DNA of 64,000 nucleotides from Pseudomonadota bacterium (GTDB lineage Bacteria > Pseudomonadota > Alphaproteobacteria > CACIAM-22H2): the NCBI GenBank assembly GCA_041178225.1, contig JBEGVV010000258.1, positions 1,514 through 65,513 on the forward strand, written 5' to 3'. Position numbers and translations under genes: made by a program. The notes below the pieces were generated by a model that saw only the letters and a list, made by a program, of their open reading frames with translations, was not told the origin of the DNA and made no database searches. This document shows positions 8,212 to 43,490 of the stretch, in pieces. The stretch's first letter is position 1, and each line of letters starts with the position of its first letter.

Positions 8212-9921
<1,710 letters not shown>

Positions 9922-21827: not shown

Positions 21828-24314
21828 ATGGCGTTCCGCGGCCTCGACGAGGACGAGGCCGCGCGCCGCCTCGCGCAGGCCGGGCCCAATGCCCTGCCCG
21901 CGCCGCGCGGCCGCGGGCTCCTGCGCTTCTTCGCGGAGGTCCTGGAGGAACCGATCTTCCTCCTGCTCGTCGGCGCGGCGGTGCTCTACCTCGCGATCGG
22001 CGACGCCGCGGAGGGCATCCTCATGGCCGGATGCGCGGCGGTCTCCGTCGCGCTGGTCGCCGTGCAGTCCTGGCGCAGCGAGAAGGTGCTCGCGGCGCTC
22101 AAGGGCATCGTCGCGCCGCGCGCCCTCGTCGTGCGCGGCGGCGCGACGCGGCGCGTGGGCGCCGAGACGATCGTCCCGGGCGACTTCGTGGTCCTCGCGC
22201 CCGGGGACCGGGTGCCAGCCGACGGGATCCTGCGCGAGGGCGCCGGACTGGTGCTCGACGAATCCGCGCTGACCGGGGAATCCGTGCCGGTGCGCAAGCG
22301 CGCCAGCGAGGAGCCCGGGCCCGGCGACGCCACGCCGGGCGGCGACGACACGCCCTTCGTCTTCTCCGGCACGCTCGTGCTCTCCGGCGAGGGCATCGCC
22401 GAGGCCACCGCGACGGGGCCGCGCAGCCGCGTCGGCGCGATCGGCGCGGCGCTCGCGACGCTGCGCTGGCCACCCACGCCGCTGCAGCTCGCGACCGCCC
22501 GGCTCGTGCGGCGCCTGGCGCTCGTCGGCGTCGCGCTCTCGATCCTCGTCGGCGCGCTCCACTACGCGCGCGAGGCCGACTGGCTGCAGGCCACGCTGGC
22601 CGGCATCACGCTCGCGATGAGCGCGATGCCGGAGGAACTGCCGATGGTCCTCGCGATCTTCCTCGCGATGGGGGCGTGGCGGCTGTCGCGCCATGGCGTC
22701 CTCGCGCGGCAGCCAAGCGCCGTGCTCGCGCTCGGCGCCACCACGGTGCTGTGCGTCGACAAGACGGGCACGATCACCGAGAACCGCATCCGCCTGGAGC
22801 GCATGGCCATCCCGGGCGCTGTCGCCGGCGTCGAAGAGGCGGTGGCCGATGCGCGCTTCGCGCCCCTGCGCGCCGCGGCGCTCCATGCCTCGCACCCCCA
22901 GGGCGGCGATCCGATGGACCGCGCGACGCATGCGCTTGGCCCTGCGCCGGCGGGAGGCGCGCTGCGCGAGTACCCGATCGAGGCGCGCAGGCCACGCGTC
23001 GCCTTCGCCTGGCCGGATGGCGCAGGCGTGCTCGTCGCGGCCAAGGGCGCGCCCGAGGAGATCGCGCGCCTCTGCCGCCTCGACGCGGACGCCGCGCGCG
23101 CGGCCATGGCCAGCGTCGAGGTGCTGGCCGCCGAGGGATTGCGCGTCCTCGCCGTGGCCACGGCGCGCGCGCCGTCGGCTCCCGACGAGATCGACGGCCT
23201 CGCCTTCGCCTGGGCGGGGCTGCTCGCCTACGGCGACCCGGTCCGCAAGTCCGCGCGCGCGAGCATCGAGGAATGCCTCGCCGCCGGCATCGAGGTCGTG
23301 ATGATCACCGGCGACTATCCTGCGACGGCCTGCGCGGTTGCGCGCCACGCAGGCATCGACGCGACCGGCCACTCCATGTCCGGCGCCGAGGTCGCGCGGC
23401 TCGACGACGCGGCGCTGCGCGAGGCGGTCGCCGGCAAGCGCGTCTTCGCGCGCACCGAGCCCGGGCAGAAGCTGCGCATCGTCGAGGCGCTGCGCGCGCG
23501 CGGCCATGTCGTCGCGATGACCGGGGATGGCGTCAACGACGCGCCGGCGCTGCGCGCGGCGCATGTCGGCGTGGCCATGGGCAGCCGCGGCACCGACGTC
23601 GCGCGCGAGGCCGCGGGCCTCGTCGTGCTCAACGACGACCTCGGCTCGATCGTCTCCGCGATCCGCCTCGGCCGGCGCATCGCCGACAACATCCGCAAGG
23701 CGATGGTGTTCGTCGTCGCGGTCCACGTCCCACTTGTCGGCCTCGCCCTGCTGCCGCTGCTGCTCGGCTGGCCGCCGATGCTCGCGCCGGTTCACGTCAT
23801 CTTCCTCGAGCTCGTCATCGACCCGACCTGCGCGATCGTCTTCGAGGCGCAGGAGGCCGAGCGCCGCGCCATGCGCCGCCCGCCGCGGCCCGCCAGCCGC
23901 ACCGTCGCCTCGCCGCTCACCATCGCGCTCGCGGTGGCGCAGGGCTGCGCCCTGCTCGCCTGCGCCTTCGCGGCCTATGGCGGCGCGCTCGGGCTCGGCC
24001 TGCCCCATGGGGAGGCGCGCGCGCTCGGCTTCGTGGCCCTGGTCGCCGGCACGCTCTGCCTCGCGCTCACCAACCTGTCCTGGGACGACTTCGCCTTCGC
24101 GCCGCGGATCCTCTCCCATCCCGCCGTTGCCCTCGCCGCCGGCGCGACCAGCGCGATGCTCGCGCTGCTCCTCGCATGGCCGGCCGCGCGCGGCGTCTTC
24201 GGCTTCGCGGTCCCCGCGGCGGGGCCCCTCGCCATCGCGGTCGTGGCCGGCGCCGCCTCGGTGCTCTGGTTCGAGGCGGTGAAGCGCGGCGGGCTGATGG
24301 CGCGCGGGGCCTGA
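21828..24314 (+). CDS. Cation-transporting P-type ATPase (type II, Ca2+/Mg2+-like)
   Basis: DKTGTIT phosphorylation motif, TGES, MITGD and TGDGVNDAPAL. Confidence 0.9.
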   Translation: MAFRGLDEDEAARRLAQAGPNALPAPRGRGLLRFFAEVLEEPIFLLLVGAAVLYLAIGDAAEGILMAGCAAVSVALVAVQSWRSEKVLAALKGIVAPRALVVRGGATRRVGAETIVPGDFVVLAPGDRVPADGILREGAGLVLDESALTGESVPVRKRASEEPGPGDATPGGDDTPFVFSGTLVLSGEGIAEATATGPRSRVGAIGAALATLRWPPTPLQLATARLVRRLALVGVALSILVGALHYAREADWLQATLAGITLAMSAMPEELPMVLAIFLAMGAWRLSRHGVLARQPSAVLALGATTVLCVDKTGTITENRIRLERMAIPGAVAGVEEAVADARFAPLRAAALHASHPQGGDPMDRATHALGPAPAGGALREYPIEARRPRVAFAWPDGAGVLVAAKGAPEEIARLCRLDADAARAAMASVEVLAAEGLRVLAVATARAPSAPDEIDGLAFAWAGLLAYGDPVRKSARASIEECLAAGIEVVMITGDYPATACAVARHAGIDATGHSMSGAEVARLDDAALREAVAGKRVFARTEPGQKLRIVEALRARGHVVAMTGDGVNDAPALRAAHVGVAMGSRGTDVAREAAGLVVLNDDLGSIVSAIRLGRRIADNIRKAMVFVVAVHVPLVGLALLPLLLGWPPMLAPVHVIFLELVIDPTCAIVFEAQEAERRAMRRPPRPASRTVASPLTIALAVAQGCALLACAFAAYGGALGLGLPHGEARALGFVALVAGTLCLALTNLSWDDFAFAPRILSHPAVALAAGATSAMLALLLAWPAARGVFGFAVPAAGPLAIAVVAGAASVLWFEAVKRGGLMARGA

Positions 24315-25202: not shown

Positions 25203-26828
25203 ATGACCTCCGGCCGGGACCCGGAGGCGCCACCGCCCCCGCCCGCGCGCGACCTGGCCCTCCTGCGCGAGGCGGACCGGCTCGCGGCCAGCGGCGACGC
25301 GCGCGGCGCGCTCGCGCTGTTCGACGCGGCATCGCGAGGGCCGCTGGCCGCGTATGCGCTGCTGCGCACGGGCCAGCTCCTCCATGCGCAGGGCGCGCAT
25401 GCGGCGGCGATGGACGCGCTCGGCCGGGCGGCCATGCTGCGCCCGGGCGATGCGCCGATCCTCTTCGCGCTGGGCAACGCCGCGCGCGACCTCGGGCGCG
25501 TGGACGAGGCCGAGGCGCATTTCCGCGCCGCGCTTGGCGTGGCTCCGGCGAGCCCGGAGCCAGCCGTGAACCTCGCCAACCTCCTCCGCAGGCAGGGCCG
25601 CGCGGCCGAGGCGCAAGCGATCCTCTCCGCCTCGCTCGCGCGCAATCCGGGCTCGGCGGCGCTGCACGAGGCCGCCGGCCTCGCCGCGCTTGACGCGCGC
25701 GACCACGAGGCCGCCTGCGCCAGCCTCCTCGAGGCGCTGCGCCTCGCGCCGGGCCGCGCCGAGACGCAGGCCAACCTCGCCGAGGCGCAGGCCGGGGCGG
25801 GCCGCCACGGCGAGGCGGTGCGCCTGCTCGATGCCGCCATCCCGCGCCTCGCCGACCCTTCGCTCGCGCGCCTCAACCGCGCCCATGCGCTGATGGCGCT
25901 GGGCCGCTGGACGGAGGCCTGGATCGACTACGAGGCAAGGTTCGGCAGGGCATCCATGGCGGGCGCCGCGCGGCACCCCTCCCGGATCCCCCTGCCCGCC
26001 TGGCGCGGCGGCCCGGCGCCGGCAGGTCCTCTCCTCGTCTGGGGCGAACAGGGCCTGGGCGACGAGATCGTCGGCGCCAGCCTCCTGCCCGCTCTTGCCG
26101 GGCAGGTGGGCGAAATCGTGGTCGAGGCGAGTCCTCGCCTCGTCGCGCTCCTCGCGCGCAGCTTCCCGGGCCTGCGCGTCGTCGCGCGCGACGACGCGTC
26201 CGTGCCCCAGGGCTGCGTGGCGCATGTCCCGATGGGAAGCCTGATGGCGATCCTGGGATGGACGCCCGCGCGGATGCCGATGCCAGCCGTGCTCGTGGCG
26301 GACCGCGCGCGCGCCGAAGCCGCCGCGGCACGGCATCGCCGCCCCGGCCGCCGGCTCGTCGGCCTCGCCTGGGCGAGCGGCGCGGCCGGCGGGCTCGGCG
26401 CGCTGAAGACGCTGCCGCGCGACGAGCTCGCGCGCCTCGTCCGCGGGAGCGACGCCGTCTTCCTCGACCTGCAATATGGCGATACCGAAAGGACGCGCGC
26501 CGAGCTCGCCGCGGCGACCGGCGCGGAGATCCTCCGCGACCGCGAGATCGACGTGCGATCGGACATCGACGGGCTGGCCGCGCTCTGCGCCGCCTGCGAC
26601 GCGGTCGTCACCACGAGCAACGTCACGGCGCATGTCGCAGGCGCGCTCGGCGCCGAGACGCATGTCCTCGTGCCGTCCGGCCACGCGCAGCTCTGGTACT
26701 GGACGCCCTCGCCCGGCGCGGCCGCGTTCTACGCGCGCGCCACGCTCCACCGGCAGGACGGCGCCGGCTGGCGCGGCGCGGTCGATTCCGTCCGCGCGGC
26801 GCTCGCCGTCAGGCCACCCACTCGCTGA
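25203..26828 (+). CDS. TPR-repeat protein with a C-terminal GT9 (heptosyltransferase-like) domain; paralog of 14286..16178
   Basis: TPR units are followed by GEQGLGDEIVGASLLP and a GT9-like C-terminus. Confidence 0.7.
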   Translation: MTSGRDPEAPPPPPARDLALLREADRLAASGDARGALALFDAASRGPLAAYALLRTGQLLHAQGAHAAAMDALGRAAMLRPGDAPILFALGNAARDLGRVDEAEAHFRAALGVAPASPEPAVNLANLLRRQGRAAEAQAILSASLARNPGSAALHEAAGLAALDARDHEAACASLLEALRLAPGRAETQANLAEAQAGAGRHGEAVRLLDAAIPRLADPSLARLNRAHALMALGRWTEAWIDYEARFGRASMAGAARHPSRIPLPAWRGGPAPAGPLLVWGEQGLGDEIVGASLLPALAGQVGEIVVEASPRLVALLARSFPGLRVVARDDASVPQGCVAHVPMGSLMAILGWTPARMPMPAVLVADRARAEAAAARHRRPGRRLVGLAWASGAAGGLGALKTLPRDELARLVRGSDAVFLDLQYGDTERTRAELAAATGAEILRDREIDVRSDIDGLAALCAACDAVVTTSNVTAHVAGALGAETHVLVPSGHAQLWYWTPSPGAAAFYARATLHRQDGAGWRGAVDSVRAALAVRPPTR

Positions 26829-28485
26829 CCGGCGCGCGCGCCTCGTTGAGCGGCTGGCAGACGACGTCGACGAGCGTCGGCCCGCCATGCTCGATCGCGG
26901 TGCGGAGCGTCTGGCGCAGTTCCGCGGGATCCTCGACGCGCCAGCTCCTGACACCGAAGGCCGCGGCCACGGCGGCATGGTCGGTGCGGTTGAAGTCGAC
27001 GGAGAAGTAGCGGCCGTCATAGCCGGTCTTCTGGCCGGCCTTGATCCAGCCAAAGACCGAGTTGGAGACGACGACCATGGTCACCGGCACGCGGTTGCGG
27101 ACGATGGTCTCCATCTCGCCGCAGGAGAAGCCGAAGCTGCCGTCGCCCATCACGGCGACGACCTTCGACGACGGCCGCCCGTACCACGCCCCCACCGCGC
27201 CGGGCAGCGAGTAGCCGAGCGCGCCATGGGCGCGGTTGGTGATGAACCAGCGGCCCGCGCGGTGCTTCGGGTAGAAGGCCGAGAAATAGGGGCAGGGCGT
27301 GCCGGGATCCGCGACGATGACGGCGTCGTCGCCGAGCACGGCCGCGAGCTCGGCGACCAGCCGCTCGGGCTTGATAGGCCGGTCGTCGGAGAGCGCGAGC
27401 GGCCTGTAGGCGGCCTCCTTCTCCGCGCGCGCCTTCGCGACCATCGCGATCGCCCCGGACGGGTCGCGGCGCGCCACGGCCGAGGCGAGCGCCGCGAGCG
27501 CGAGGCGGGCATCGCCCACGACGCCGGCCTCGGTCTGGAAATTGGCGCCGATCACGCCCGGCTCCACGTCGACATGGACGATGCGCGTGCCGGGCCTCGG
27601 GTGGCGCCAGCGCTCGGTCGTGACCGACCCCGCGCGGCAGCCCACGAACACGACGAGGTCCGCGGCATCGACGATCGCGCGCGTCGCCGCGACGCCGCCA
27701 TTCGAGCCGACGACGCCCGCATGCAGCGGATGCGAATCCGGCATCGAGCCCTGGCCGCTTATCGTCGTGCAGACCGGCGCGCCGATGCGCTCGGCCAGCG
27801 CCGCGAGCTCGGCCTCGGCGTGGGAGAGCACGACGCCGCCGCCAAGCACCAGCACCGGCCGCGTCGCGGAGTCGATCGCCCTCGCGGCCGCCTCGATCGC
27901 GGCGGGATCGGGCGCCACGCGCGCGGCGGGCGCGGCGCCGAAGCGCCGGTCGGCCCAGACGTCCTGCTCGTCGACCGGCGCCTTCTGCACGTCGAAGGGA
28001 AGTCCGAGATGCACCGCGCCCGGACGGCCCGTCGTCATGGTGCGGAAGGCGCGCCGCAGGATCGACGGTATGTCGGCCGCGCGATCGATCACGCTCGTCC
28101 ACTTGGAGAGCGGCCGGAACAGCGCCTCCTGGTCGAGCTCGGTCAGGGTGTACTTGCCGCGCGAGGACACGGAGATGTCCGTCGTCACGGCCAGCAGCGG
28201 GATCGAGCTCTCGTGCGCCTCGACCACGCCGGGAAGGATGTAGGTCGCGCCGCCGCCCGAGGGCCCCTCGCAGACGCCGACCTTGCCGGTGACCCGCGCG
28301 TAGCAATCCGCCATGTAGGCCGCGGAGCGCTCGTCGCGGGTCAGGACATGGGTGATCCCGTGGTCGAGCCGCGCGAGCGCGTCGTAGAGCGGCAGGCTCG
28401 TGTCGCCGCACAGCCCGAAGACATGCGTGACGCCATGGTGCTGGAGCATGCGCACGAAGGCTTCGGCGCCGGAGAGCTGGTTCAT
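26809..28485 (-). CDS. Thiamine-diphosphate-dependent enzyme (acetolactate synthase large subunit / benzoylformate-decarboxylase-like)
   Basis: 558 aa. It has the ThDP N-terminal domain HVFGLCGDTSLPLYDAL and a GDGSF ThDP-binding motif. Confidence 0.85.
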   Translation of the reverse strand: MNQLSGAEAFVRMLQHHGVTHVFGLCGDTSLPLYDALARLDHGITHVLTRDERSAAYMADCYARVTGKVGVCEGPSGGGATYILPGVVEAHESSIPLLAVTTDISVSSRGKYTLTELDQEALFRPLSKWTSVIDRAADIPSILRRAFRTMTTGRPGAVHLGLPFDVQKAPVDEQDVWADRRFGAAPAARVAPDPAAIEAAARAIDSATRPVLVLGGGVVLSHAEAELAALAERIGAPVCTTISGQGSMPDSHPLHAGVVGSNGGVAATRAIVDAADLVVFVGCRAGSVTTERWRHPRPGTRIVHVDVEPGVIGANFQTEAGVVGDARLALAALASAVARRDPSGAIAMVAKARAEKEAAYRPLALSDDRPIKPERLVAELAAVLGDDAVIVADPGTPCPYFSAFYPKHRAGRWFITNRAHGALGYSLPGAVGAWYGRPSSKVVAVMGDGSFGFSCGEMETIVRNRVPVTMVVVSNSVFGWIKAGQKTGYDGRYFSVDFNRTDHAAVAAAFGVRSWRVEDPAELRQTLRTAIEHGGPTLVDVVCQPLNEARAPVSEWVA

Positions 28486-28621
28486 CGCTTCGACCTTTCC
28501 GGTTTTCCCGCCGCGAGACTAGCGCCCCCGGGCGATGCCGAGTAGCGCCGCGACGCGGTGCCCGCCCCGCGCGAGGCCGCGATTGACGGAGGCGGCGCGC
28601 ATCCGCCCTACTGCGGGGCCC
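28486..28621. promoter_or_regulatory. Divergent intergenic region between the ThDP enzyme and the kinase-enolase-peptidase tricistron
   Basis: 136-bp gap between divergent starts. Confidence 0.3.
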
Positions 28622-29641
28622 ATGCAGGACAGCCTCGTCGAGATCCTCTCCGCGCTCCGCCGGCTCGGGCTCGTGCGGGGAGACGCCGATCCTCCCGCCG
28701 AGCCCCTCGCCGGCGGCGTGTCCTCCGACATATGGCGCATCGACCTTCCCGGCGGCGCGATCTGCGTGAAGCGCGCGCTCGCCCGGCTGCGCGTCGCGCA
28801 GGACTGGCGCGCGCCGGTCGAGCGCAACGCCTTCGAGGTCGCGTGGATGGAGGTCGCGGGCGAGGCCGTGCCAGGCGCCGTGCCGCGCCTCGTCGCCGTC
28901 GACGACGCTACGAAGCTCTTCGCGATGGAGTTCCTCGACCCGCGGACGCATCCGCTGTGGAAGGCGCGGCTGCGCGACGGGATCGCCGAGCCGCCGGTCG
29001 CGCGCGCCGTCGGCGAGCGCCTCGCGCGCATCCACGCCGCGACGGCCGGCCGCGACGACGTGGCGGCGCGGTTCCGCAGCGACGCGATCTTCCACGCGAT
29101 CCGCCTCGAGCCCTACCTGCTCGCCACCGCGCGCCGCCATCCCGACCTCGCGCCGCGGCTGGAGGCGCTCGTCGCGCGCACGGCCGCGACGCGCCTCGCG
29201 CTGGTGCACGGCGACGTCAGCCCGAAGAACATCCTGGCCGGCCCGAGCGGCCCGGTCTTCCTCGACGCCGAGTGCGCCTGGTACGGGGACCCGGCCTTCG
29301 ACGCGGCCTTCTGCCTCAACCATCTCCTGCTCAAGGCGGCATGGCGGCCGGCGCACGCGATCGCCTATCTCTCCCTCTTCGACGCTTTGCGGCGGTCCTA
29401 CCTCGCGGGCTGCGACTGGGAGCCGGTCGCCGGGCTCGAGGCGCGCATCGCCGCCCTTCTGCCCGCGCTCCTCCTGGCACGCGTCGACGGCAAGTCGCCG
29501 GTCGAGTACATCGTCGACGACGCGATGCGCGACGCGGTCCGCCGCGTCGCGCGCCCCCTTGTCGCCGCCCCTCCGGCCGACATCTCCGCCATCCGCGCGG
29601 CCTGGGCCGCCGAAACCGCCAGCTGGAGCCGCCATCCATGA
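28622..29641 (+). CDS. Kinase of the MtnK (methylthioribose kinase)/APH phosphotransferase superfamily
   Basis: VHGDVSPKNIL and DAECAWYGDPAFDAAFCLNHLLL match the MtnK HGDLHTGS / DPEFAFYGPxGFD motifs. Start MQDSLVEILSALRR. Confidence 0.7.
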   Translation: MQDSLVEILSALRRLGLVRGDADPPAEPLAGGVSSDIWRIDLPGGAICVKRALARLRVAQDWRAPVERNAFEVAWMEVAGEAVPGAVPRLVAVDDATKLFAMEFLDPRTHPLWKARLRDGIAEPPVARAVGERLARIHAATAGRDDVAARFRSDAIFHAIRLEPYLLATARRHPDLAPRLEALVARTAATRLALVHGDVSPKNILAGPSGPVFLDAECAWYGDPAFDAAFCLNHLLLKAAWRPAHAIAYLSLFDALRRSYLAGCDWEPVAGLEARIAALLPALLLARVDGKSPVEYIVDDAMRDAVRRVARPLVAAPPADISAIRAAWAAETASWSRHP

Positions 29642-30909
29642 CATCGACCCGCATCGCCCGCATCCATGGACGGCGCGTCTGGGACTCCCGCGGCCGGCCC
29701 ACGGTCGAGGCCGAGGTCGAGCTCGCGGGCGGCGCGACCGGCCGCGCCATCGCGCCCGCCGGCGCCTCGACCGGCTCGGGCGAGGCCGTCGACCTGCGCG
29801 ACGGTGGCGGCTCGCAGGGAGGCCTCGACGTCACGAAGGCCGTCGGCAACGTGAACGGGGACATCGCGAGCCTGCTGCAGGGCATGGACGCCGCCGACCA
29901 GGGCGCGGTCGATGCCGAGCTGGTCGCGCTCGACGGCACGCCGACGAAGCGGCGCCTGGGCGGCAACGCGACGATCGCCGTCTCCATGGCCGTGGCCCAT
30001 GCCTCGGCGGCGCAGCGCGGCCTGCCGCTCTGGCGCCATCTCGGCGGCGAGCGGCCGCTGGTCGCGCTGCCGGAGATCCAGGTCATCGGCGGCGGCGCGC
30101 ATGCCGCCGCGCGCGTCGACCTGCAGGATTTCCTCGTCATCGCGACCGGCGCGTCCTCGGTCGCCGAGGCGCTCGACTGGACGGGCGACGTCTATCGCGC
30201 CGCTGGCGCCATCCTGAAGGAGCGCGGCCTGCTGCAGGGCGTCGCCGACGAGGGCGGCTGGTGGCCGGCCTTCGAGTCCAACGAGGCCGCGCTCGAGACG
30301 CTCTATCGCGCGATCGAGAAGGCGGGCTTCGCGCCGGGGCGCGAGATGTCGATCTCGCTCGACATCGCCGCCACCCAGTTCCACGACAAGGGCAGCTACA
30401 GGCTGCGCCGCGACGACCGCACGATGGACGCCGCCGCGCTCGGCGCGATGCTCGCGCGCTGGGCCGACGACTACCGGATCGTGGCGATCGAGGATCCGGT
30501 CGCGGAGACCGATGCCGAGGGCATGGTGGCCTTCACCCGCGCCGTCGGCGCGCGTTGCCTCGTCGTCGGCGACGACTTCCTTGTGACCAACGCCGCGCGC
30601 ATCCGCGCCGCGGCGGCGGCAGGCGCCTGCAACACCGCGCTGATCAAGCCCAACCAGGCCGGAACGCTGAGCGAGACGAAGGCGGCCTTCGACGCCGCGC
30701 GCGCGGCCGGCTGGCGCACGATCGTCTCGGCGCGCTCGGGCGAGACCGAGGATTGCACCATCGTCCACCTCGCCGCCGCATGGGGCGCGGACCTCCTCAA
30801 GGTCGGCTCCTTCGCGCGCGGCGAGCGGACCGCGAAATGGAACGAGAGCCTGCGCCTCGCGGAAGTCGAGGGCGCGGGCTTCACGCGCTGGAAACCGATC
30901 GGGGGATGA
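29638..30909 (+). CDS. Divergent enolase-family protein (paralog; probably not the housekeeping eno)
   Basis: WDSRGRPTVEAEV, GASTG, ADEGG, IKPNQAGTLSET and SARSGETED are enolase signatures, but His is replaced by Ala in SHRSGETED and QEF is replaced by QDF. The ATG overlaps the kinase stop (ATGA). Confidence 0.8.
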   Translation: MTSTRIARIHGRRVWDSRGRPTVEAEVELAGGATGRAIAPAGASTGSGEAVDLRDGGGSQGGLDVTKAVGNVNGDIASLLQGMDAADQGAVDAELVALDGTPTKRRLGGNATIAVSMAVAHASAAQRGLPLWRHLGGERPLVALPEIQVIGGGAHAAARVDLQDFLVIATGASSVAEALDWTGDVYRAAGAILKERGLLQGVADEGGWWPAFESNEAALETLYRAIEKAGFAPGREMSISLDIAATQFHDKGSYRLRRDDRTMDAAALGAMLARWADDYRIVAIEDPVAETDAEGMVAFTRAVGARCLVVGDDFLVTNAARIRAAAAAGACNTALIKPNQAGTLSETKAAFDAARAAGWRTIVSARSGETEDCTIVHLAAAWGADLLKVGSFARGERTAKWNESLRLAEVEGAGFTRWKPIGG

Positions 30910-32045
30910 CGCCCATGTTCATCGACGCGGAGTTCGACGGCGGCAACATCGAGGTGCTCGACGCCTCGGTCCCGGGCCTCGCGAGGCTGGCGATACGGCC
31001 GGACCGCTTCTCCCACTACTACCAGTGGTTCTGCTTCCGGCTCTCCGGGGCGCGCGGGCGCGAATGCGTCCTGCGGATCGAGAACGCGTCGGGCGCGGGC
31101 TATCCCGCGGGCTGGCGCAACGGCTATCGCGCCGTCGCGTCGACCGACCGCGAGGCGTGGCGCCGCGTGCCGACATCCTATGACGGCACGGCGCTGGAGA
31201 TCCGCCTCGTGCCCGAGGCCGACTGCACCTGGATCGCCTATTTCGCGCCCTACACGCAGGAGCAGCACGACCGCTTCCTCGGGCGCGTGACCGCGGACCC
31301 GCGCGTCGTCCACGAAACCATGGGCCGCAGCCTCGACGGCAGGCCCCTCGACCTGCTGCGCATCGCGACCCCGGGCGCAGGCAAGCGCGTCGCCTGGGTC
31401 ATCGCGCGCCAGCATGCCGGCGAGACGATGGCCTCGTATTTCCTCGAGGGCTTCGTCGGCCGCCTGCTGGAACCGCACGACGAGGTCGCGGCCAACCTGC
31501 TCGACCGCTTCGTCTTCCATGTCGTGCCGAACATGAACCCCGACGGATCGCGGCGCGGTCACCTGCGCTGCAACGCCGCCGGCGTCGACCTGAACCGCGA
31601 ATGGGCCGCGCCCTCGGCCGCGCGCAGCCCGGAGATCCTCCACGTGCGCCAGCGCATGGAGAGGACCGGCGTCGACCTCTTCCTCGACATCCACGGCGAC
31701 GAGGCGACGCCGCACAACTTCCTGATCGGCTCGATGGGCGTGCCCAACCAGACCGAGGGGATGACGCGGCTCTTCCGCGACTACCTCGCCGCGCTCGTCG
31801 CCGCGACGCCGGAGCACCACGCGCATAACGGCAACTGGTCGCGCGATCCCGGCAGCATCAACCTCGCCATCGGCTCTTCATGGGTCGCGAACCGGTTCCG
31901 CTGCCTCGCGATCACGGTGGAGATGCCCTTCGCCGACGAGGACGACACGCCCGATGCCGTCCATGGATGGTCGCCGCTTCGCAGCCACCATCTCGGCCGC
32001 GCGCATCTCGACGCGGTGCGCGCGGTGGCGCCGCGCCTGCGCTGA
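30906..32045 (+). CDS. M14 zinc carboxypeptidase of the cytosolic-carboxypeptidase (CCP/Nna1-like, M14D) type
   Basis: N-domain motif FDGGNIEV, zinc ligand HAGE, NPDG and a later IHGDE. The ATG overlaps the enolase stop (ATGA). Confidence 0.75.
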   Translation: MTPMFIDAEFDGGNIEVLDASVPGLARLAIRPDRFSHYYQWFCFRLSGARGRECVLRIENASGAGYPAGWRNGYRAVASTDREAWRRVPTSYDGTALEIRLVPEADCTWIAYFAPYTQEQHDRFLGRVTADPRVVHETMGRSLDGRPLDLLRIATPGAGKRVAWVIARQHAGETMASYFLEGFVGRLLEPHDEVAANLLDRFVFHVVPNMNPDGSRRGHLRCNAAGVDLNREWAAPSAARSPEILHVRQRMERTGVDLFLDIHGDEATPHNFLIGSMGVPNQTEGMTRLFRDYLAALVAATPEHHAHNGNWSRDPGSINLAIGSSWVANRFRCLAITVEMPFADEDDTPDAVHGWSPLRSHHLGRAHLDAVRAVAPRLR

Positions 32046-32055
32046 GGCGCGTGGC

Positions 32056-35000
32056 TCAGCCGCCGTCGCCGACGACCGAGAAGGGTGCCCAGAAGATCGG
32101 GTGCGCGTAGGAGAACACGGTGCGCCCGCCCTCGACGAAGCCCGGGCCATCGATCAGCGCCAGCATCGCCTGCTGGGCTGCCTTCGCCCGCGCGAGGCCC
32201 GGATCCGCCGCCTGCCGCGCGAAGAGGTCCGTCGTCAGGGCCCGCGCGCTCGTCGTCTCGACCGGCCAGTTCGTCACCAGCAGCGCCCGCGTCCCAGCGT
32301 AGAAGAACGCGCGGCCCAGGCCGGAGACCGCCTCCGCCCCCGCGCCATCGCCCGTCGCCGTGTTGCACGCGCTCAGCACGACCCAGTCCGCATTGAGGCG
32401 CAGCCCCAGTACCTCGTCCATCGTCAGCAGGCCGTCGCCGTCGCTTCCCGCGACCGCCGGCGCCGTCAGCGCCAGCGCGGGCTGCGCCAGTCCGTTCAGG
32501 TCGCCAGGCACCAGGCCATGCGTGGCGAACATCACCACCTTGCGGTCCGAGAGGCTGGCCCCCTTCACGCGCGCCTCGCTCGCCTGCAATCCCAGGAACA
32601 CGTCGGCGGAGGGATCCGCCTTCAGCGCCACCGCGATGCTCCGCACCTCGTCGGCGGTGTCGGGAAGCCGCGGCAGGCTCGCCAGCTCGGCGCTTGCCGA
32701 GGACTGCGTCTGCGGGGCGTTGCGCCGCACCAGCGGCAGGCCTCGCGTCTGCAGCCCGCGGGTCGTCAGCTGGGCCACCTGCGTGCTGCCCGCCGCCGCC
32801 TGCTCGGTGCTGAAATACGGGTCGCCGAAGCCGATGAACGGCTTGCGCGACGCCTCCCCGGGCGCAAGGCGTCGCAACGCCCCCAGCGACGCGACCGACG
32901 GGAGCTGCGTCACCGCCTTCTCGCGCGCGAGGAACGGGACCTGCGCATAGCCGGAGAACAGCGCGCGGCCCTGAGTGTCGGCTGGCGCCGGCACCGCCCG
33001 CGTGACCAGCAGCGAGAACGGGATCTGGCCCAGCGCCTTGTCGGGCACGACCAGCAGGCTCTCCGCCCCGGCCAGCCCCGCCCTCACCGGCGCCAGGAAC
33101 TGCTCGTGCAGGCGATGCGCGAGCGCCACGTCGAAGGCGGGGATGTCGCCAAGCGTCGCCGCGTTCGGGTCAAGCGCGCGGCGCAGCCGGGCGACCGACT
33201 GCGCGATATCCTTCTCGCCGGCGGCGACCGCGGCGAAGGCCGCGGGACCGCTCTTCGGCACGGCCCACACGAAGCTTCGCGCCTGGCCAACGTAGACGCT
33301 CACCAGCGCCTCGCCGGCACGAAGCTGGGACTGCACGTCCTCGACCGTCGCGGGCCGCGGGTCGATCAGGCTCGCGTAGTCCGGGAAGCGCCGCTCGATC
33401 TCCTCGCGCAAGGACGCGCGCGCACGGCGCAGCGTGTCGATGCTCGTGCGCAGCGAAGCCGTCGCGGCCGCGTCCTGCTGGCTCGCCGGGGACGACAGGA
33501 TGTTCGACAGCAAGCCGAACTGCGCCGCGATCTGCTTGCGCGCATCCTGCTCCTGGCGCACCAGCGCCGCGAGGCCGGGGTCGCGGATCCCCGAGCGCGC
33601 CGCGCTCTCCGCCAGAGCGCGCTGCACGCCCTGCGCGCGCGCCGCGTCCGCCACGCGGAACGCCTCGGCCGCCGGGTCGAGGCCACCACCCGCGGAAGCG
33701 GGCAACGAACTCAGGAGGTCGACGTAGCTCTCCAGCACGAAGCGCTGCACGCGCTCGCGCTGCGCGCCGCCCTCCTCGTCCTCGCTCTGCCGCGACACCT
33801 GCAGCAGGACCGGCACCGACGCGCGGAAGCCGGCAAGCGCCTCCTCCCGCTTCCCCGTCGCGGCCTGCGCTGCCGCCAGGATCCCGCGCGACTGGGCCGT
33901 CTCGTAGTGCCGCTCCCCGAAATTGCGCGCGCGCTCGGACGCAAGGCGCTCGGCACTTGCCATGATCGCCGTGGCCCGGCCGGACTCGATCCGGGAGACG
34001 AGAAAGCCGGGCTGGCTCTCGACGCGGCGAAAGCGCTCGTCCGGATCGTCCGCGAACACCGCGAGGGCACGGTCGATCGCCGCATCCGACGCCGCAATGT
34101 CGCCCTCCTCGCGCGCCGCCGAGGCGGAGAGGAGGTTGCCCAAGGCGACGAAGCGCGATCCCTTGAAGACGCCATAGCGGTCGTAGGTCGCGAGGGCGAC
34201 CTCGGCGAGTTGTCGCGACTCGGCGAAACGACGCTGCTCCAGCATGTTGCGGGACAGGTTCAGCGACAGGGCGGCGACGCGAAGGCTGTCGCGCCCGAAG
34301 ACCCGCAGCGCGTGGACGAGGGCACGCCTGAACTCGACCTCGGCCTCCACCAGCCTCCCCTGCATCCGCAGCACGTTGCCGAGCTGCGCGAGGGAGACGA
34401 GGAGCTGGCTGTCCTGGAGGTCGTCGCTGACGTCCGGCACCACCGCCTTGATCGCCTGCCTGTTGGCGAGGTTCCACTGCTCGTTCTCCAGCGCGGCCCG
34501 CGAACTGCGTTCGGCCTCGGCGTAGCGCCCCTCGGCCATCCTGACCTCGGCCTCCGCGCGCAGGATCAGGGCCTCCTGCATTCGGCGAGATGCCTGGTAC
34601 CCGGACGAGCGCTGGTAGCCCGGGTCGGCGAGCGCACGCCTCGCCGCGGCAAGCCCCCGCTCGGCTGCAGCGAGATCCCCTGCCTGGGCGTCAAGGTTAG
34701 CCAGCGACGCCTCGCCCGCCGAGATTGTCCCCATCCGCCCGCTGGCGCGCGCAGCCTGCAGGCGCTTGATGGCGGCGTCATGGGCGTTCCGGGCATTGCC
34801 CACGAAGGACTCTGCCGCCATCAGTTCCTGGTAGGCCCGCGATGTGTCGAGGCGGTTTGCCTCGCCGATCCGCGCGGCCTCGCGCAGATCCCGGACCTGC
34901 CCGTCCACCAGGCCCAGTTCGCCACGCGCCTGCGCGCGCCTGAGGAGGAAGCCGTAGAGCGCGGCGGGCGAGGCACTCGCGGGAGGCTCCGCGCCGCTGG

Positions 35001-35214
35001 CGGCGCTGAGCGCGGCGACGCGCGCCGGGTCCGGGCTGGCCTGGGCGAGCAGCGCCGTGATGTCGCTGATCGTGCGCGGCGGCGGCACGAAGGCCGCCTG
35101 CCCCTGGAACCCGGCCTGGACGCGCCGCGCCTCGTCGAGGGACATGGCCGGCCGCTCGTCCTGGCAGCCGCCCATGGCAAGCAGCCCAAAGATCGCTACG
35201 ACGACGCGCTTCAT
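32056..35214 (-). CDS. Large lipoprotein with N-terminal TPR-like repeats and a C-terminal CHAT (caspase-like) protease domain
   Basis: The start MKRVVVAIFGLLAMGGCQ is a lipobox. The C-terminus has ATHG...VLSACNTATGD...GTRALLVTNWPVE, a CHAT His/Cys dyad region. The upstream 330 aa of the six-frame ORF overlaps the aminotransferase gene and is an artefact. Confidence 0.75.
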   Translation of the reverse strand: MKRVVVAIFGLLAMGGCQDERPAMSLDEARRVQAGFQGQAAFVPPPRTISDITALLAQASPDPARVAALSAASGAEPPASASPAALYGFLLRRAQARGELGLVDGQVRDLREAARIGEANRLDTSRAYQELMAAESFVGNARNAHDAAIKRLQAARASGRMGTISAGEASLANLDAQAGDLAAAERGLAAARRALADPGYQRSSGYQASRRMQEALILRAEAEVRMAEGRYAEAERSSRAALENEQWNLANRQAIKAVVPDVSDDLQDSQLLVSLAQLGNVLRMQGRLVEAEVEFRRALVHALRVFGRDSLRVAALSLNLSRNMLEQRRFAESRQLAEVALATYDRYGVFKGSRFVALGNLLSASAAREEGDIAASDAAIDRALAVFADDPDERFRRVESQPGFLVSRIESGRATAIMASAERLASERARNFGERHYETAQSRGILAAAQAATGKREEALAGFRASVPVLLQVSRQSEDEEGGAQRERVQRFVLESYVDLLSSLPASAGGGLDPAAEAFRVADAARAQGVQRALAESAARSGIRDPGLAALVRQEQDARKQIAAQFGLLSNILSSPASQQDAAATASLRTSIDTLRRARASLREEIERRFPDYASLIDPRPATVEDVQSQLRAGEALVSVYVGQARSFVWAVPKSGPAAFAAVAAGEKDIAQSVARLRRALDPNAATLGDIPAFDVALAHRLHEQFLAPVRAGLAGAESLLVVPDKALGQIPFSLLVTRAVPAPADTQGRALFSGYAQVPFLAREKAVTQLPSVASLGALRRLAPGEASRKPFIGFGDPYFSTEQAAAGSTQVAQLTTRGLQTRGLPLVRRNAPQTQSSASAELASLPRLPDTADEVRSIAVALKADPSADVFLGLQASEARVKGASLSDRKVVMFATHGLVPGDLNGLAQPALALTAPAVAGSDGDGLLTMDEVLGLRLNADWVVLSACNTATGDGAGAEAVSGLGRAFFYAGTRALLVTNWPVETTSARALTTDLFARQAADPGLARAKAAQQAMLALIDGPGFVEGGRTVFSYAHPIFWAPFSVVGDGG

Positions 35215-41972: not shown

Positions 41973-43349
41973 TCAGCGCGCCGACCGCGTGGGCCGCGGG
42001 TCGTCAGGGACCTTTGCGCCGCGCCCTTCGTCGGCCTCGGGCGGCATCTCGATCTGCAGCACGTTGACCAGTTCGCCCATCGCGGCAAGCAGGCGGTAGG
42101 CGGAGAAGACGCGGCTGCTCTCGGCGCTGACCAGGCGCCCCTGGGACACGAACAGCTCGTTCTCCGCGTTCAGCACGTCGATCAGGCTGCGCTGTCCCTG
42201 GTTGAAGAACTGGTCGGTGTAGGCGTCGCGCACGCGGCGGTTCTTCTCCACCGCGCCGGTCAGCGGCGGGATGCGCTCGCTCGCGGTCTGGTACTGGACC
42301 CAGGAGCGACGCGCCTCCTCCTCGGTGGTGCGCGCCGTCGCGTGGCGCTGCGCCATCGCCTGGGACATGCGGCCGAGCGCGACGCGGCGCTGGGCCTGGT
42401 CGGACCCGCCGCGATAGAGGTTCCAGCGCATGACCACGAGCGCCGAGGCGTCGTTGCTGTCGCCGCGCGTGCCGTCGATGTTGCGGTCGCGCGTCGCGCC
42501 GAGCTCGAGGTTGAGCTTCGGGTAGGCCGCGGCATCCGCGACGCCGATCTCGTTCTCGGCGACGGAGATGTCCGCCTCGGTGATCCTGAGCGCGCGGTTG
42601 CCGCTGCGGCTGCGCTCGATGGCGGCGTCGAGCGTGCTGACGTCGCGCATCGCGGCCTGCGGGAACTCCGCGGCCGCGAGCTGGCCGGCGCGCTTGTTCA
42701 CGACGATGAAGTAGCGGTTCTCGGCATCCTCGAGGGCGCCCTGCGTCTCCACCAGCGTGGCCTGCGCGTTGTCGAGTCGCGCGCGGGCCTGCTCCTGGTC
42801 GGCGGCAGGGGCCGCGCCACGGCCCACGCGCTGCGAGATGCGGCCGACGATCTGCCTGTGGATCTCGAGGTTCTGCTCGGCGAGGCGCACGAGGCGGCGC
42901 TGCCTGAGGACGTCGATATGCGCCTCGACCGCGTCGAGGGCCACGACCTCCGACGTCTCGCCGACGCGGCGCGCCGCGGATTGCCCGCGCGCCTTCTGCC
43001 GCTCGACCTCGCTGTCGGTCTCCCATCCATCGAACAGGCGCTGCGTCACGAAGACGCCGGTCTCGCGACGCGGCAGCGTGGCCGAGCCGCCGCGCGCGCG
43101 CGTGGTGCCGTTGTCCGACCACTCGGGCCCGCCGCCCGCGCGCAGGTCGAGCTGGGGCAGGTACTGGCCGCGGGCACGCGCCAGTTCCTGCTCCACCGCC
43201 TGCCTGTTGAACGCCACGACATCCACGCGCGGGTTGCTGCGCACGGCTTCCTGGGCGCTCTCCCTGAGCGACTGCCCGGCCGCGCCGCCTGCGGTGGCGA
43301 AAATGAGCGCCAGGGCGAGGGGAAACCGGATCTTCGCTTGCTGGAACAC
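41973..43349 (-). CDS. TolC-family outer-membrane efflux protein (type I secretion type)
   Basis: Signal peptide MFQQAKIRFPLALALIFATAGGAAGQ. There are two repeated halves, and LESAQ / NPRVDVVAFNRQA are TolC-like. Confidence 0.8.
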   Translation of the reverse strand: MFQQAKIRFPLALALIFATAGGAAGQSLRESAQEAVRSNPRVDVVAFNRQAVEQELARARGQYLPQLDLRAGGGPEWSDNGTTRARGGSATLPRRETGVFVTQRLFDGWETDSEVERQKARGQSAARRVGETSEVVALDAVEAHIDVLRQRRLVRLAEQNLEIHRQIVGRISQRVGRGAAPAADQEQARARLDNAQATLVETQGALEDAENRYFIVVNKRAGQLAAAEFPQAAMRDVSTLDAAIERSRSGNRALRITEADISVAENEIGVADAAAYPKLNLELGATRDRNIDGTRGDSNDASALVVMRWNLYRGGSDQAQRRVALGRMSQAMAQRHATARTTEEEARRSWVQYQTASERIPPLTGAVEKNRRVRDAYTDQFFNQGQRSLIDVLNAENELFVSQGRLVSAESSRVFSAYRLLAAMGELVNVLQIEMPPEADEGRGAKVPDDPRPTRSAR

Positions 43350-43389
43350 GGGACGACCTCGATTTGCGACTAGCGTCGCGAAGCATTGG

Positions 43390-43490
43390 ACGAATTCCGC
43401 CGGGAACTCAACGCTTCGTTGGATATTTACGAATATTTTGGGCCGCCGCCGTTAACCAAACGGACAGGTCGCCGGTATAGCCTCTGGGGC
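43390..43490. promoter_or_regulatory. Divergent promoter region between tolC-like and the T1SS ABC gene, with an AT-rich -10-like box
   Basis: ttggatatttacgaatattttggg. Confidence 0.3.

Follow-up and report, generated by a model that had tools for sequence, protein, structure and literature searches.

Three closely packed genes of an alphaproteobacterium, which encode a small-molecule kinase, an enolase-family protein and a carboxypeptidase homolog, raise the question whether they constitute a single pathway, as proposed in the initial annotation of this DNA, and which reaction they may catalyse. The window referred to below is the whole stretch of 64,000 nucleotides analysed; the features of the locus are given in Table 1.

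Table 1. Features of the kinase-enolase locus and their positions in the window.
Feature	Position	Strand	Remark
MtnK-like small-molecule kinase, APH fold, 339 aa	28622..29641	+	first gene of conserved pair
Enolase-family paralog "enolase*", 423 aa	29638..30909	+	second gene of conserved pair
ATGA stop/start overlap, kinase/enolase*	29638..29641	+	direct sequence reading
M14D bacterial cytosolic-carboxypeptidase homolog	30915..32045 (alternative start 30906)	+	PF18027 + PF00246
ThDP-dependent enzyme, acetolactate-synthase superfamily, divergent	26809..28485	-	three TPP domains
Divergent intergenic region, 136 bp	28486..28621	.	length checked on sequence

Translation confirms that the kinase and enolase* frames and the forward peptidase frame 30906-32045 are open, and a codon-usage gene model chooses the same three genes. 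The reading frames, the 136-bp spacer, two ATGA strings (the second at 30906-30909) and the quoted motifs were all recovered where the initial annotation had placed them, the latter being HGDVSPKN at residue 196 and LDAECAWYGDPAFD at residue 214 of the kinase, and FDGGNIEV at 10, QHAGE at 169, NPDG at 211 and HGDE at 263 of the peptidase frame beginning at 30906. Neither a sigma-70-like site nor an Rfam family was detected in the spacer. The further claim of obligatory co-translation goes too far, as a 4-bp overlap suggests translational coupling but does not demonstrate that it is obligate. Likewise, only the first of the two alleged start/stop fusions is secure. For the peptidase, the second ATG (30915, MFIDAEFDGGN...) is the likelier start, and the ATGA between enolase* and the peptidase may therefore not be a start/stop overlap. 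A Shine-Dalgarno-like GGGGGA run ends 8 nt upstream of this ATG, a 98%-identical homolog (P0121) comprises 376 aa and not 379, and the alignment with 3l2n, a homolog of known structure, begins at residue 4. In the related loci L001 and L091 the two genes are 50-60 bp apart.

The kinase displays the hallmarks of the APH / eukaryotic-like kinase fold, i.e., a Pfam APH match (PF01636, 55 bits against a cut-off of 23.2), the HGDxxxxN loop, a metal-binding Asp and the ATP Lys/Glu pair. Across 25 homologs, residues H196, G197, D198 and N203 of the loop (196-203) as well as D215, K50 and E72 do not vary. Its only sequence matches in the PDB are 2pyw and 2olc, and by this comparison it is nearer to methylthioribose kinases than to antibiotic APHs, as initially suggested. 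MtnK itself is ruled out by a TIGR01767 score of 57.9 bits, below the equivalog cut-off of 275, and by the absence of mtnA, mtnB and other methionine-salvage genes both from the window and from 135 immediate neighbours of the pair. More than 8000 homologs of the kinase were found, in at least 582 species-level genomes.

The second gene encodes a protein with both enolase domains (PF03952, Enolase_N, 151 bits; PF00113, Enolase_C, 232 bits), which scores above the curated TIGR01060 cut-off (434 vs 300 bits) and is about 46% identical to the Chloroflexus enolase 4yws. Enolases in the strict sense are usually regarded as one isofunctional family, and automated annotation calls every member of the present clade "phosphopyruvate hydratase". 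Judged by its residues, enolase* is a paralog family with an altered catalytic signature. The metal ligands D246/E295/D320, the base K345, K396, the acid E211 and S39, H159, Q167, R374 and S375 (yeast numbering) are kept, while the canonical Glu168 and His373 on the side of the C3-hydroxyl are replaced by Asp and Ala in the window protein as well as in every linked homolog (in the window, E168D is Asp164 in LQDFLV and H373A is Ala365 in SARSGETED). The complete signature (S39 H159 Q167 D168 E211 D246 E295 D320 K345 A373 R374 S375 K396) was present in 74/74 kinase-linked enolases checked, and plasmid-borne, archaeal and fused copies carry the identical D168/A373 combination with the other catalytic residues intact. 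Positions 168 and 373 covary: among 150 cluster representatives 79 possess E/H, these being the canonical representatives sampled, and about 50 combine D with A, G, T or V. Further clade-specific changes lie beside K345, K396 and E211. The clade is deep, comprising about 50 of the nearest 150 clusters at 50% identity, and its occurrence on plasmids or chromids of Methylobacterium, Rhizobium, Rhodococcus, Paracoccus and Halomarina argues for an extra copy, not the glycolytic housekeeping enzyme. The earlier designation of this gene as a paralog is thus borne out by signature and location.

The linkage of both genes was assessed in 80 species-level loci, retrieved with the kinase as sole anchor. 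In 71 of these, enolase* immediately adjoins the kinase on the same strand, and a further 6 have it within 3 kb; of the remaining three loci, two end at a contig edge. The pair is distributed over at least seven bacterial phyla and one haloarchaeon, and occurs in both gene orders. The 4-bp overlap recurs in 27 other loci (26 with the kinase first, one reversed), and full-length kinase::enolase fusions of about 770 aa form at least 21 protein clusters; one was verified on the Polaribacter staleyi chromosome. The functional unit is accordingly a two-gene module of kinase and enolase paralog and not a tricistron. No description of this pair was located in the searchable literature.

The third gene is indeed the M14D cytosolic carboxypeptidase homolog that had been recognised before. 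It matches PF18027 (Pepdidase_M14_N, 118 bits) and PF00246 (Peptidase_M14, 91 bits), and thus combines the CCP N-domain with an M14 domain bearing HxxE, Arg, His and the catalytic Glu. It scores 363 bits against 3l2n, to which the zinc/catalytic motifs QHAGE, NPDG..RGHLR, HGDE and VEMPF all align; further matches are 4b6z, 3k2k and 4a37. The ThDP enzyme stays under every NCBIfam cut-off (ALS 403 vs 866, Gcl 325 vs 791, Xsc 282-296 vs 620-676); unlike Gcl, its sequence has the canonical Glu that contacts N1' of ThDP.

The initial model joined kinase, enolase* and M14 peptidase, possibly with the ThDP enzyme, into one pathway ending in the removal of an amide-linked Glu or Asp. It gains some support from the tight packing and probable co-transcription of the three genes, between which no convincing terminator was found, and from an arrangement kept in four loci despite divergence of their M14 proteins to 60-64% identity. 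We nevertheless consider it very improbable, and the neighbourhood data largely refute it by the criterion of conserved neighbourhood that the initial annotation had itself set: the M14 peptidase is adjacent in 1/80 and the ThDP enzyme in 0/80 kinase-anchored loci. Beside the pair, the former occurs only in the window, L001, L005 and L091, all from one uncultured alphaproteobacterial lineage, and the latter, apart from the window, only in L001 and L091. A wider synteny block is conserved across the same four loci, which explains the adjacency by shared ancestry; M14 homologs of 54-59% identity are located after recQ or in other unrelated contexts, and the enolase*/M14 overlap is itself insecure. 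The M14 peptidase is a lineage-specific neighbour outside the conserved module, and we see no evidence that it or the ThDP enzyme shares a pathway with the pair. The locus consequently offers no usable clue to the function of bacterial cytosolic carboxypeptidases.

In other genomes the sole recurrent partner of the pair, missing from the present window, is a D-2-hydroxyacid dehydrogenase, which accounts for 27 of the 135 immediate neighbours (6 for the next commonest family) and is likewise found downstream of the fused gene in loci L103-L105. In other lineages an aldehyde dehydrogenase or a 2,4-diketo-3-deoxyaldonate hydrolase takes this place. Neighbours of the FAH family match 2,4-didehydro-3-deoxy-L-rhamnonate hydrolase with 342-426 bits; the products of that hydrolase are pyruvate and a C3 2-hydroxy acid. 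In Flavobacteriia an aldehyde dehydrogenase lies upstream of the fusion, with an isomerase, a PfkB kinase and a class II aldolase alongside, and in Rhizobium indicum PEP carboxylase (ppc) is part of the operon. The majority of loci possess no informative neighbours, and ACAD homologs are near the pair in four loci only, never as the adjacent partner.

The pair resembles an undescribed phosphorylate-then-eliminate route to phosphoenolpyruvate (PEP), a reading to which, deducing chemistry and substrate from context, we assign a probability of roughly 0.55. With ATP as donor, the kinase would place a phosphate on the 2-hydroxyl of a small D-2-hydroxy acid with a leaving group at C3 (X-CH2-CHOH-COO-). 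This acid would be supplied by the enzyme beside the pair, either from a 2-oxo acid by the D-2-hydroxyacid dehydrogenase, from an aldolase product by the aldehyde dehydrogenase, or by the 2,4-diketo-3-deoxyaldonate hydrolase. Enolase* would hold the 2-phospho-acid by its unaltered metal, phosphate and carboxylate sites, the Lys345 equivalent would take the C2 proton, and X, which may be a hydroxyl (with D-glycerate as the acid) or something bulkier, for example sulfonate, would leave from C3 to yield PEP. As E168D and H373A lie on the C3-substituent side of the pocket, the intermediate probably differs from ordinary 2-phosphoglycerate. The phosphorylation followed by dehydration of a phospho-acid in the initial annotation comes close to this sequence of steps, while its Glu/Asp-releasing peptidase step is unsupported. 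Against our reading, the TIGR01060 score is compatible with plain enolase activity, and we know of no APH-fold kinase that phosphorylates the 2-hydroxyl of a carboxylic acid.

In the yeast enzyme, E168 and H373 are assigned to the leaving-group side of the mechanism. Their loss, together with the retention of the base Lys345 and the stabilising Lys396, could also indicate that enolase* eliminates nothing and removes and returns the C2 proton, racemising or epimerising a 2-phospho-acid or enolising a 3-oxo analogue. This is improbable, since the main general acid Glu211 is invariant, a second base is not evident, and the PEP carboxylase neighbour and the dehydrogenase and aldehyde-dehydrogenase partners match PEP formation better. 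APH-fold kinases are well known for modifying drugs, and resistance through a duplicated insensitive target is a familiar theme; with a paralog altered at inhibitor-contacting residues, the pair might conceivably be a resistance module, in which the kinase disarms a natural enolase inhibitor and an insensitive enolase copy backs up glycolysis. To this we attach hardly any probability, because the fusion, the recurrent dehydrogenase and the presence in sugar or sugar-acid catabolic operons under LacI, LysR or AraC regulators indicate catabolism, and biosynthetic clusters are absent nearby.

If elimination to PEP is accepted, the nature of X has to be considered. With X as hydroxyl, a private enolase seems superfluous. 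In a C-S cleavage variant, which we advance tentatively and think rather unlikely, the kinase would transfer phosphate to O2 of (S)-3-sulfolactate, which would derive from sulfolactaldehyde, from sulfopyruvate or through a diketo-sulfosugar-acid hydrolase, and enolase* would expel sulfite to form PEP; more generally, enolase* would be a lyase suited to C3 leaving groups larger than hydroxide (such as sulfonate, sulfate ester or phosphate). The isomerase beside the Polaribacter fusion has the SftI sulfoquinovose isomerase model as its sole match (148 bits, cut-off 700), and a Paracoccus operon of the pair lies 15-20 kb from hpsN/suyAB/comC-like genes; across the 80 sampled loci no sulfonate marker recurs. 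A sulfonate leaving group is opposed by the encoding of SuyAB on the same Paracoccus seriniphilus plasmid as the pair and by the lack of a recurrent sulfite exporter or oxidase near it.

The substrate may instead be longer. Aldonate dehydratase is the missing step of operons L095 and L096, which favours such a substrate, and Paracoccus and Roseibium operons contain SDRs, a lactonase, a diketo-acid hydrolase and a sugar ABC transporter without a dehydratase. Here the pair could act as an ATP-dependent stand-in for an acid-sugar dehydratase, the kinase acting on the 2-hydroxyl of a C4-C6 aldonate and enolase* dehydrating the product to the phosphoenol form of a 2-keto-3-deoxy acid, to be processed by the neighbouring SDR and FAH enzymes. 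One SDR is similar to DHRS6-type 2-keto-3-deoxy-acid 4-dehydrogenases, E168D and H373A widen the C3 side of the pocket, and the dehydrogenase family of the recurrent partner includes 2-ketoaldonate reductases (PMC12994016). We regard this explanation as doubtful, for most loci consist of the bare pair or the pair with the dehydrogenase and have no sugar genes, the Burkholderia pseudomallei cluster is already equipped with mannonate dehydratases, and an additional dephosphorylation step would be required. The first-shell signature, moreover, is identical in every context, which suggests one substrate type.

The depth of the clade, its covarying substitutions, the linkage or fusion to the kinase and the breadth of species with the kinase imply a widespread, unannotated two-step reaction that supplies PEP in bacteria of soils, fresh waters and seas as well as in haloarchaea. 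Were glycerate the substrate, the kinase would represent a fourth glycerate-kinase family, and the need for a private enolase would be a puzzle. A sulfolactate or sugar-acid substrate would mean a new strategy of desulfonation or dehydration, with bearing on models of carbon and sulfur cycling and on the filling of pathway gaps; if C-S cleavage applies, an organism could complete sulfoglycolysis alone and gain PEP instead of pyruvate.

Among known systems, the window peptidase shares its N-domain and catalytic domain, about 50% identity and all motifs with the bacterial cytosolic carboxypeptidases (M14D; 3l2n, 4b6z, 3k2k, 4a37), and is distinctive only by its position beside the pair in one lineage. 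The kinase has its nearest solved-structure relatives among MtnK and 5-deoxyribose kinase (2pyw, 2olc), with HGDxxxxN and DxE in common, but unlike MtnK it is partnered by an enolase and lacks salvage genes nearby. Enolase* agrees with canonical enolase (TIGR01060) in fold, domains, the three metal ligands and the retained catalytic residues, and differs in its Asp/Ala pair, its obligate kinase linkage and the changes by the catalytic lysines.

A close formal parallel is the combination of glycerate 2-kinase and enolase in the lower part of the serine cycle, the non-phosphorylative Entner-Doudoroff and the glucarate pathways. The two proposed steps would be alike, namely 2-O-phosphorylation of a C3 2-hydroxy acid and its conversion to PEP by loss of the alpha-proton and beta-elimination; so are the upstream enzyme types (hydroxypyruvate reductase or glyceraldehyde dehydrogenase) and, in one locus here, the adjacent ppc. 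Those systems, however, use the housekeeping enolase, whereas the present E168D/H373A paralog is private and at times kinase-fused. The glycerate kinases known so far fall into the GlxK/GarK, MOFRL or P-loop families (in part after PMC2063504), none of which is the APH/MtnK fold found here. Acid-sugar dehydratases and 3,6-anhydrogalactonate cycloisomerase (MR/MLE subgroups) similarly abstract an alpha-proton, stabilise the enolate by metal and eliminate a beta oxygen substituent. Their substrates are unphosphorylated, while enolase* belongs to the enolase subgroup proper, retains the residues that bind phosphate and depends on a kinase.

If X is sulfonate, the net reaction would equal that of SuyAB, proceeding through the intermediate of a reversed ComA reaction (2-phospho-3-sulfolactate to PEP and sulfite), and the flavobacterial context would resemble sulfo-EMP genes with a sulfolactaldehyde dehydrogenase. 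SuyAB is a UxaA-family lyase that yields pyruvate, and ComA has an unrelated fold and works in the biosynthetic direction; in two 2026 reviews of sulfoquinovose catabolism, neither a kinase nor an enolase step appears. Two further comparisons may serve as leads only. Activation of a hydroxyl for elimination by a kinase is known from LvaA/LvaC and ACAD10/11, where LvaA is an APH-fold kinase that prepares the eliminase substrate. In the Lva system, unlike in our proposal, it is the phosphate that departs, and an acyl-CoA dehydrogenase serves as partner. In phosphinothricin biosynthesis the enolase homolog PhpH has an analogue of 2-phosphoglycerate as its substrate, but it belongs to a biosynthetic cluster without a kinase partner.

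The locus in the window reveals a widespread and apparently uncharacterised kinase-enolase module, in which the enolase carries an altered catalytic site and both activities sometimes reside in one protein. The initial annotation had read a kinase, a divergent enolase and an M14 peptidase as one tricistron, possibly joined by the divergently transcribed ThDP enzyme; its observations on the sequence are essentially right, but its reading of them as a tricistron finds no support.

The window has a G+C content of 72%, and a codon-usage gene model calls the same three plus-strand genes as the initial annotation, together with the divergent gene. All three reading frames are open and their products show the quoted motifs, both ATGA strings are present, and the spacer to the divergent gene measures 136 bp. 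Two start/stop overlaps had been claimed, of which only the one between kinase and enolase is secure. The peptidase more probably begins at the second of two in-frame ATGs, where a GGGGGA run terminates 8 nt upstream and the product starts with MFIDAEFDGGN. P0121, a homolog of 98% identity, has 376 aa, the alignment to the solved homolog 3l2n begins at residue 4, and in L001 and L091, both related loci, 50-60 bp separate enolase and peptidase. With this start, the second ATGA would be no overlap at all. Promoter, terminator and Rfam scans at the locus yielded nothing useful.

Positions of features in the window and, where named, in other genomes
Feature	Position	Strand	Remarks
ORF	8212-9921	-	Large; presumably a urease subunit gene
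5_ureB_sRNA (Rfam)	9480-9769	+	123.8 bits, full length; antisense inside ORF 8212-9921; sole Rfam match in the window
P-type cation ATPase	21828-24314	+	Between GST and aspartate-dehydrogenase-like genes
ThDP enzyme	26809-28485	-	Divergent from kinase
MtnK-like kinase	28622-29641	+
ATGA, kinase/enolase	29638-29641	+
Enolase paralog	29638-30909	+
ATGA, enolase/peptidase	30906-30909	+
M14 peptidase	30906-32045	+	As called by the gene model
Candidate peptidase starts	30906, 30915	+	ATG; 30915 has better Shine-Dalgarno spacing and fits homolog lengths
TPR + CHAT-domain protein	32056-35214	-	1052 aa; ends 10 bp past peptidase stop
Outer-membrane efflux protein, C39-peptidase-domain ABC exporter	41973-45647	-, +	Adjoining; bacteriocin/peptide-export type pair, unrelated to the module
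Small VOC/glyoxalase-fold gene, locus L019 (Burkholderiales)	11013-11399		Between kinase and enolase; identified by eye
Small VOC/glyoxalase-fold gene, locus L032 (Burkholderiales)	10981-11400		Between kinase and enolase; identified by eye
Cluster of distant kinase homolog, L098 (Enterobacter chuandaensis plasmid NZ_CP097174.1)	6863-14648		No enolase
DHPS/sulfolactate island, L107/L109 (Paracoccus seriniphilus plasmid NZ_CP067132.1)	24-39 kb

The kinase matches APH in Pfam (55 bits), and its relatives among PDB sequences are only plant and Bacillus methylthioribose kinases. The proposed likeness to MtnK is borne out by these relatives and by the best NCBIfam model, but identity with MtnK is not, the score being 57.9 bits against a cut-off of 275. 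Methionine-salvage genes do not occur near the kinase in the window; a canonical MtnK, or a part in methionine salvage, was rejected on the model score and on the neighbours, both here and among the 135 immediate neighbours at 80 loci. Catalytic residues are intact throughout a 25-sequence kinase alignment. The peptidase (363 bits to 3l2n, all catalytic motifs kept) is by homology an ordinary bacterial cytosolic carboxypeptidase, as had been suggested. The ThDP enzyme belongs to the acetolactate-synthase superfamily and falls under every curated cut-off; a glyoxylate carboligase supplying glycerate was dismissed, as this enzyme does not pass the Gcl model and is confined to one lineage.

The enolase possesses both enolase domains and reaches 434 bits to TIGR01060 (cut-off 300), which explains why pipelines name it phosphopyruvate hydratase. 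Compared with the Chloroflexus enolase 4yws it keeps Ser39, His159, Gln167, Glu211, Asp246, Glu295, Asp320, Lys345, Arg374, Ser375 and Lys396 (yeast numbering); Glu168 is replaced by Asp (LQDFLV) and His373 by Ala (SARSGETED). The resulting signature, S-H-Q-D-E-D-E-D-K-A-R-S-K, was found in all 74 kinase-linked enolases of a first sample and recurs in plasmid-borne, archaeal and reversed-order copies that are 42-46% identical to the window protein. The altered signature and the plasmid-borne copies argue against the housekeeping enzyme and agree with the initial annotation, which had called the protein a paralog.

An exhaustive search covered 1.84 billion cluster representatives, the best 150 of which were inspected at positions 168 and 373. 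Glu168/His373 occurs in 79 of these, and Asp168 combined with Ala, Gly, Thr or Val at 373 in about 50, extending to 35% identity. Mixed cases are few, so that the two positions covary. Further changes beside catalytic residues are at least 90% conserved in the paralogs (VGDEGG to VADEGG, GGFAP to GGWWP, LIKLNQ to LIKPNQ, IKTG to LKVG and NGG to GGG), which form a distinct clade. In the established enolase mechanism, Glu168 and His373 adjoin the C3 hydroxyl of 2-phosphoglycerate. The remodelled part of the pocket is the side facing the C3 substituent, and the sites for phosphate, carboxylate and metal as well as the base are unchanged.

The kinase belongs to a large family; over 8000 proteins were scored, of which the best 120 are all at least 63% identical. 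When one genome per species was scanned, with the 25-sequence alignment as query, at least 582 kinase carriers emerged, and an unbiased set of 80 loci was returned. Together with other look-ups, the scan places carriers in Alpha-, Beta- and Gammaproteobacteria, Acidobacteriota, Methylomirabilales, Chloroflexota, Bacteroidota, Thermoleophilia, Rhodococcus, planctomycete-like contigs and the haloarchaeon Halomarina. In 71 of the 80 loci the paralog is no more than 200 bp from the kinase and shares its strand; in another six it lies 0.26-2.9 kb away, with toxin-antitoxin or small VOC genes inserted between, and it is absent from three, two of which are cut by a contig edge. Among the 75 loci with both genes called on the plus strand, kinase and enolase overlap by 4 bp in that order in 26, and the order is reversed in four (one overlapping). 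Rhizobium, Cupriavidus, Rhodococcus and Sphingobium likewise have recurrent two-domain VOC and cupin genes close to the pair. The L098 cluster (U32 peptidase, NAD(P) oxidoreductase, aminotransferase, iron-containing redox enzyme, M14 metallopeptidase and MFS transporter) is headed by a kinase homolog of 42% identity and marks the outer edge of the enolase-linked kinase clade.

In some genomes the two genes are one. P0246 (770 aa) and P0280 (745 aa) each join a full-length kinase to a full-length enolase with the D/A or D/G signature, and a search with the former yielded at least 21 clusters, 750-826 aa in length, with APH, Enolase_N and Enolase_C, one of them annotated in Polaribacter staleyi; contig look-ups confirmed single fused genes. 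The kinase-enolase linkage is obligate, and the enolase core is intact with its C3 side changed. That the genes have fused independently, occur in either order and are almost always adjacent shows that the two proteins act together, and most simply they would catalyse consecutive steps.

Such conservation does not extend to the other genes of the proposed tricistron. The M14 gene accompanies the kinase in one of the 80 loci and the ThDP gene in none; the trio is a trait of one uncultured alphaproteobacterial lineage, comprising the window and loci L001, L005 and L091. This result of the neighbourhood search is the one that the initial annotation had itself named as refuting its proposal. L091, with a 60%-identical peptidase, repeats the arrangement of divergent ThDP gene, kinase, enolase and M14 within a wider conserved synteny block, and peptidase homologs of 59% and 54% identity lie after recQ or amid unrelated genes. 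We therefore reject the trio, with or without the ThDP enzyme, as a conserved unit, and the M14 and ThDP genes contribute nothing demonstrable to the module. Within the lineage, the peptidase of L091 almost directly precedes a block of Amidohydro_2, class IV aminotransferase and cupin genes (a 61-aa ORF alone lies between), which in the window is found beyond the CHAT gene; the latter thus looks like an insertion. The genes flanking the P-type ATPase adjoin in the syntenic L001, where a histidine kinase fragment lies farther along.

We propose that the kinase would make the 2-phospho ester of a D-2-hydroxy acid with a C3 leaving group, on which the paralog would run the enolase reaction to give PEP. 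We assign this general scheme of phosphorylation and elimination a probability of about 0.65, and a C3 acid as the substrate yielding PEP is somewhat better than an even bet. Three types of supplier adjoin the pair, namely a 2-oxo-acid reductase, an aldehyde dehydrogenase downstream of an aldolase, and a diketo-acid hydrolase, and all converge on a C3 acid X-CH2-CHOH-COO-. In a Pfam run on the 135 immediate neighbours, D-isomer-specific 2-hydroxyacid dehydrogenases account for 27; the next families, glycerol kinase, PNP oxidase and EamA (six members each), all stem from Burkholderiales synteny. The dehydrogenase gene, which the window lacks, lies downstream of the enolase, divergent from the kinase or, in three planctomycete-like loci, 3' of the fused gene. 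It is most closely related to short phosphoglycerate dehydrogenases and to glyoxylate/hydroxypyruvate reductases; in Rhodococcus, Rhizobium, Cupriavidus, Sphingobium and Halomarina the pair occurs together with a second subtype that resembles CtBP. The PEP carboxylase gene of Rhizobium indicum shares an operon with dehydrogenase and kinase, which fits PEP as the product. With X a hydroxyl, the substrate would be D-glycerate; this is compatible with all contexts but gives no reason for a private, remodelled, even fused enolase, and we regard it as a tentative reading, rather doubtful when taken singly.

In other loci the pair stands among genes for sugars or sugar acids. Paracoccus seriniphilus and Roseibium aggregatum carry a LacI gene next to kinase, enolase, FAH-family hydrolase, one or two SDRs and a sugar ABC transporter; Burkholderia pseudomallei combines SDR, two UxuA-type dehydratases, lactonase, FAH, kinase, enolase and sugar ABC transporter; and in Halomarina genes for sugar dehydrogenases, dehydratases and aldolases form an island around the pair. 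Scores of 342-426 bits to the 2,4-didehydro-3-deoxy-L-rhamnonate hydrolase model (cut-off 500) identify the FAH proteins as enzymes that would cleave a diketo sugar acid to pyruvate and a C3 2-hydroxy acid. The Paracoccus and Roseibium operons lack a dehydratase, which favours an alternative in which the pair itself acts as an ATP-dependent dehydratase of a longer aldonate; the many bare pairs speak against it, and we consider it unlikely.

If X is a sulfonate, as in 3-sulfolactate or similar, both the private enzyme and the enlarged pocket would be accounted for. Such a substrate agrees with two sulfo-EMP-like Flavobacteriia loci, where an aldehyde dehydrogenase precedes the fusion and a facing operon encodes a PfkB kinase, a class II ketose-bisphosphate aldolase and a 518-aa protein with sulfoquinovose isomerase SftI as its sole family match (148 bits against a cut-off of 700). 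PDB searches with the SDR, aldolase and aldehyde-dehydrogenase neighbours gave generic matches only and no sulfoquinovose-specific enzyme. The position of the Paracoccus operon in an organosulfonate island likewise agrees with it; the hpsN-, suyAB- and comC-like genes there have the look of a textbook DHPS/sulfolactate set and lie some 15-20 kb from the operon, although SuyAB on that very plasmid also weighs against a sulfonate. This set encodes a TRAP transporter, a hisD-like (HpsN-type) protein, SDR, Zn-ADH, two UxaA-family (SuyAB-type) proteins, a TTT transporter, a 2-hydroxyacid dehydrogenase, Ldh_2 (ComC-type) and a putative sulfate exporter. Moreover, a sulfite-handling gene recurs nowhere near the pair, and the dehydrogenases lack clear orthology: those linked to the pair are 40-46% identical to that of a bona fide sulfolactate cluster, which is uninformative. 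We consider a sulfonate unlikely, with a smaller share of the C3 reading than glycerate. Two further ideas were discarded, an LvaA-like 4-hydroxyacyl-CoA system because ACAD neighbours are rare, and an Fe-S-independent dihydroxy-acid dehydratase bypass, which the window's neighbouring ALS-like and class IV aminotransferase genes had suggested, because ilv genes recur nowhere else among the loci.

No description of the pair was found in the portion of the literature covered, which dealt with enolase paralogs, glycerate kinases, sulfolactate and sugar-acid pathways, nor in recent papers on sulfoquinovose and sugar acids, and enolase is unmentioned in the sulfoquinovose catabolism literature examined. 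The proposed phosphorylation and elimination would work in the same manner as glycerate 2-kinase followed by enolase. However, the kinase lies outside all three known classes of glycerate kinases, and the paralog fails two residues that define the enolase family. Its logic is shared with the acid-sugar dehydratases of the enolase superfamily and, were X a sulfonate, would resemble that of ComA in reverse.
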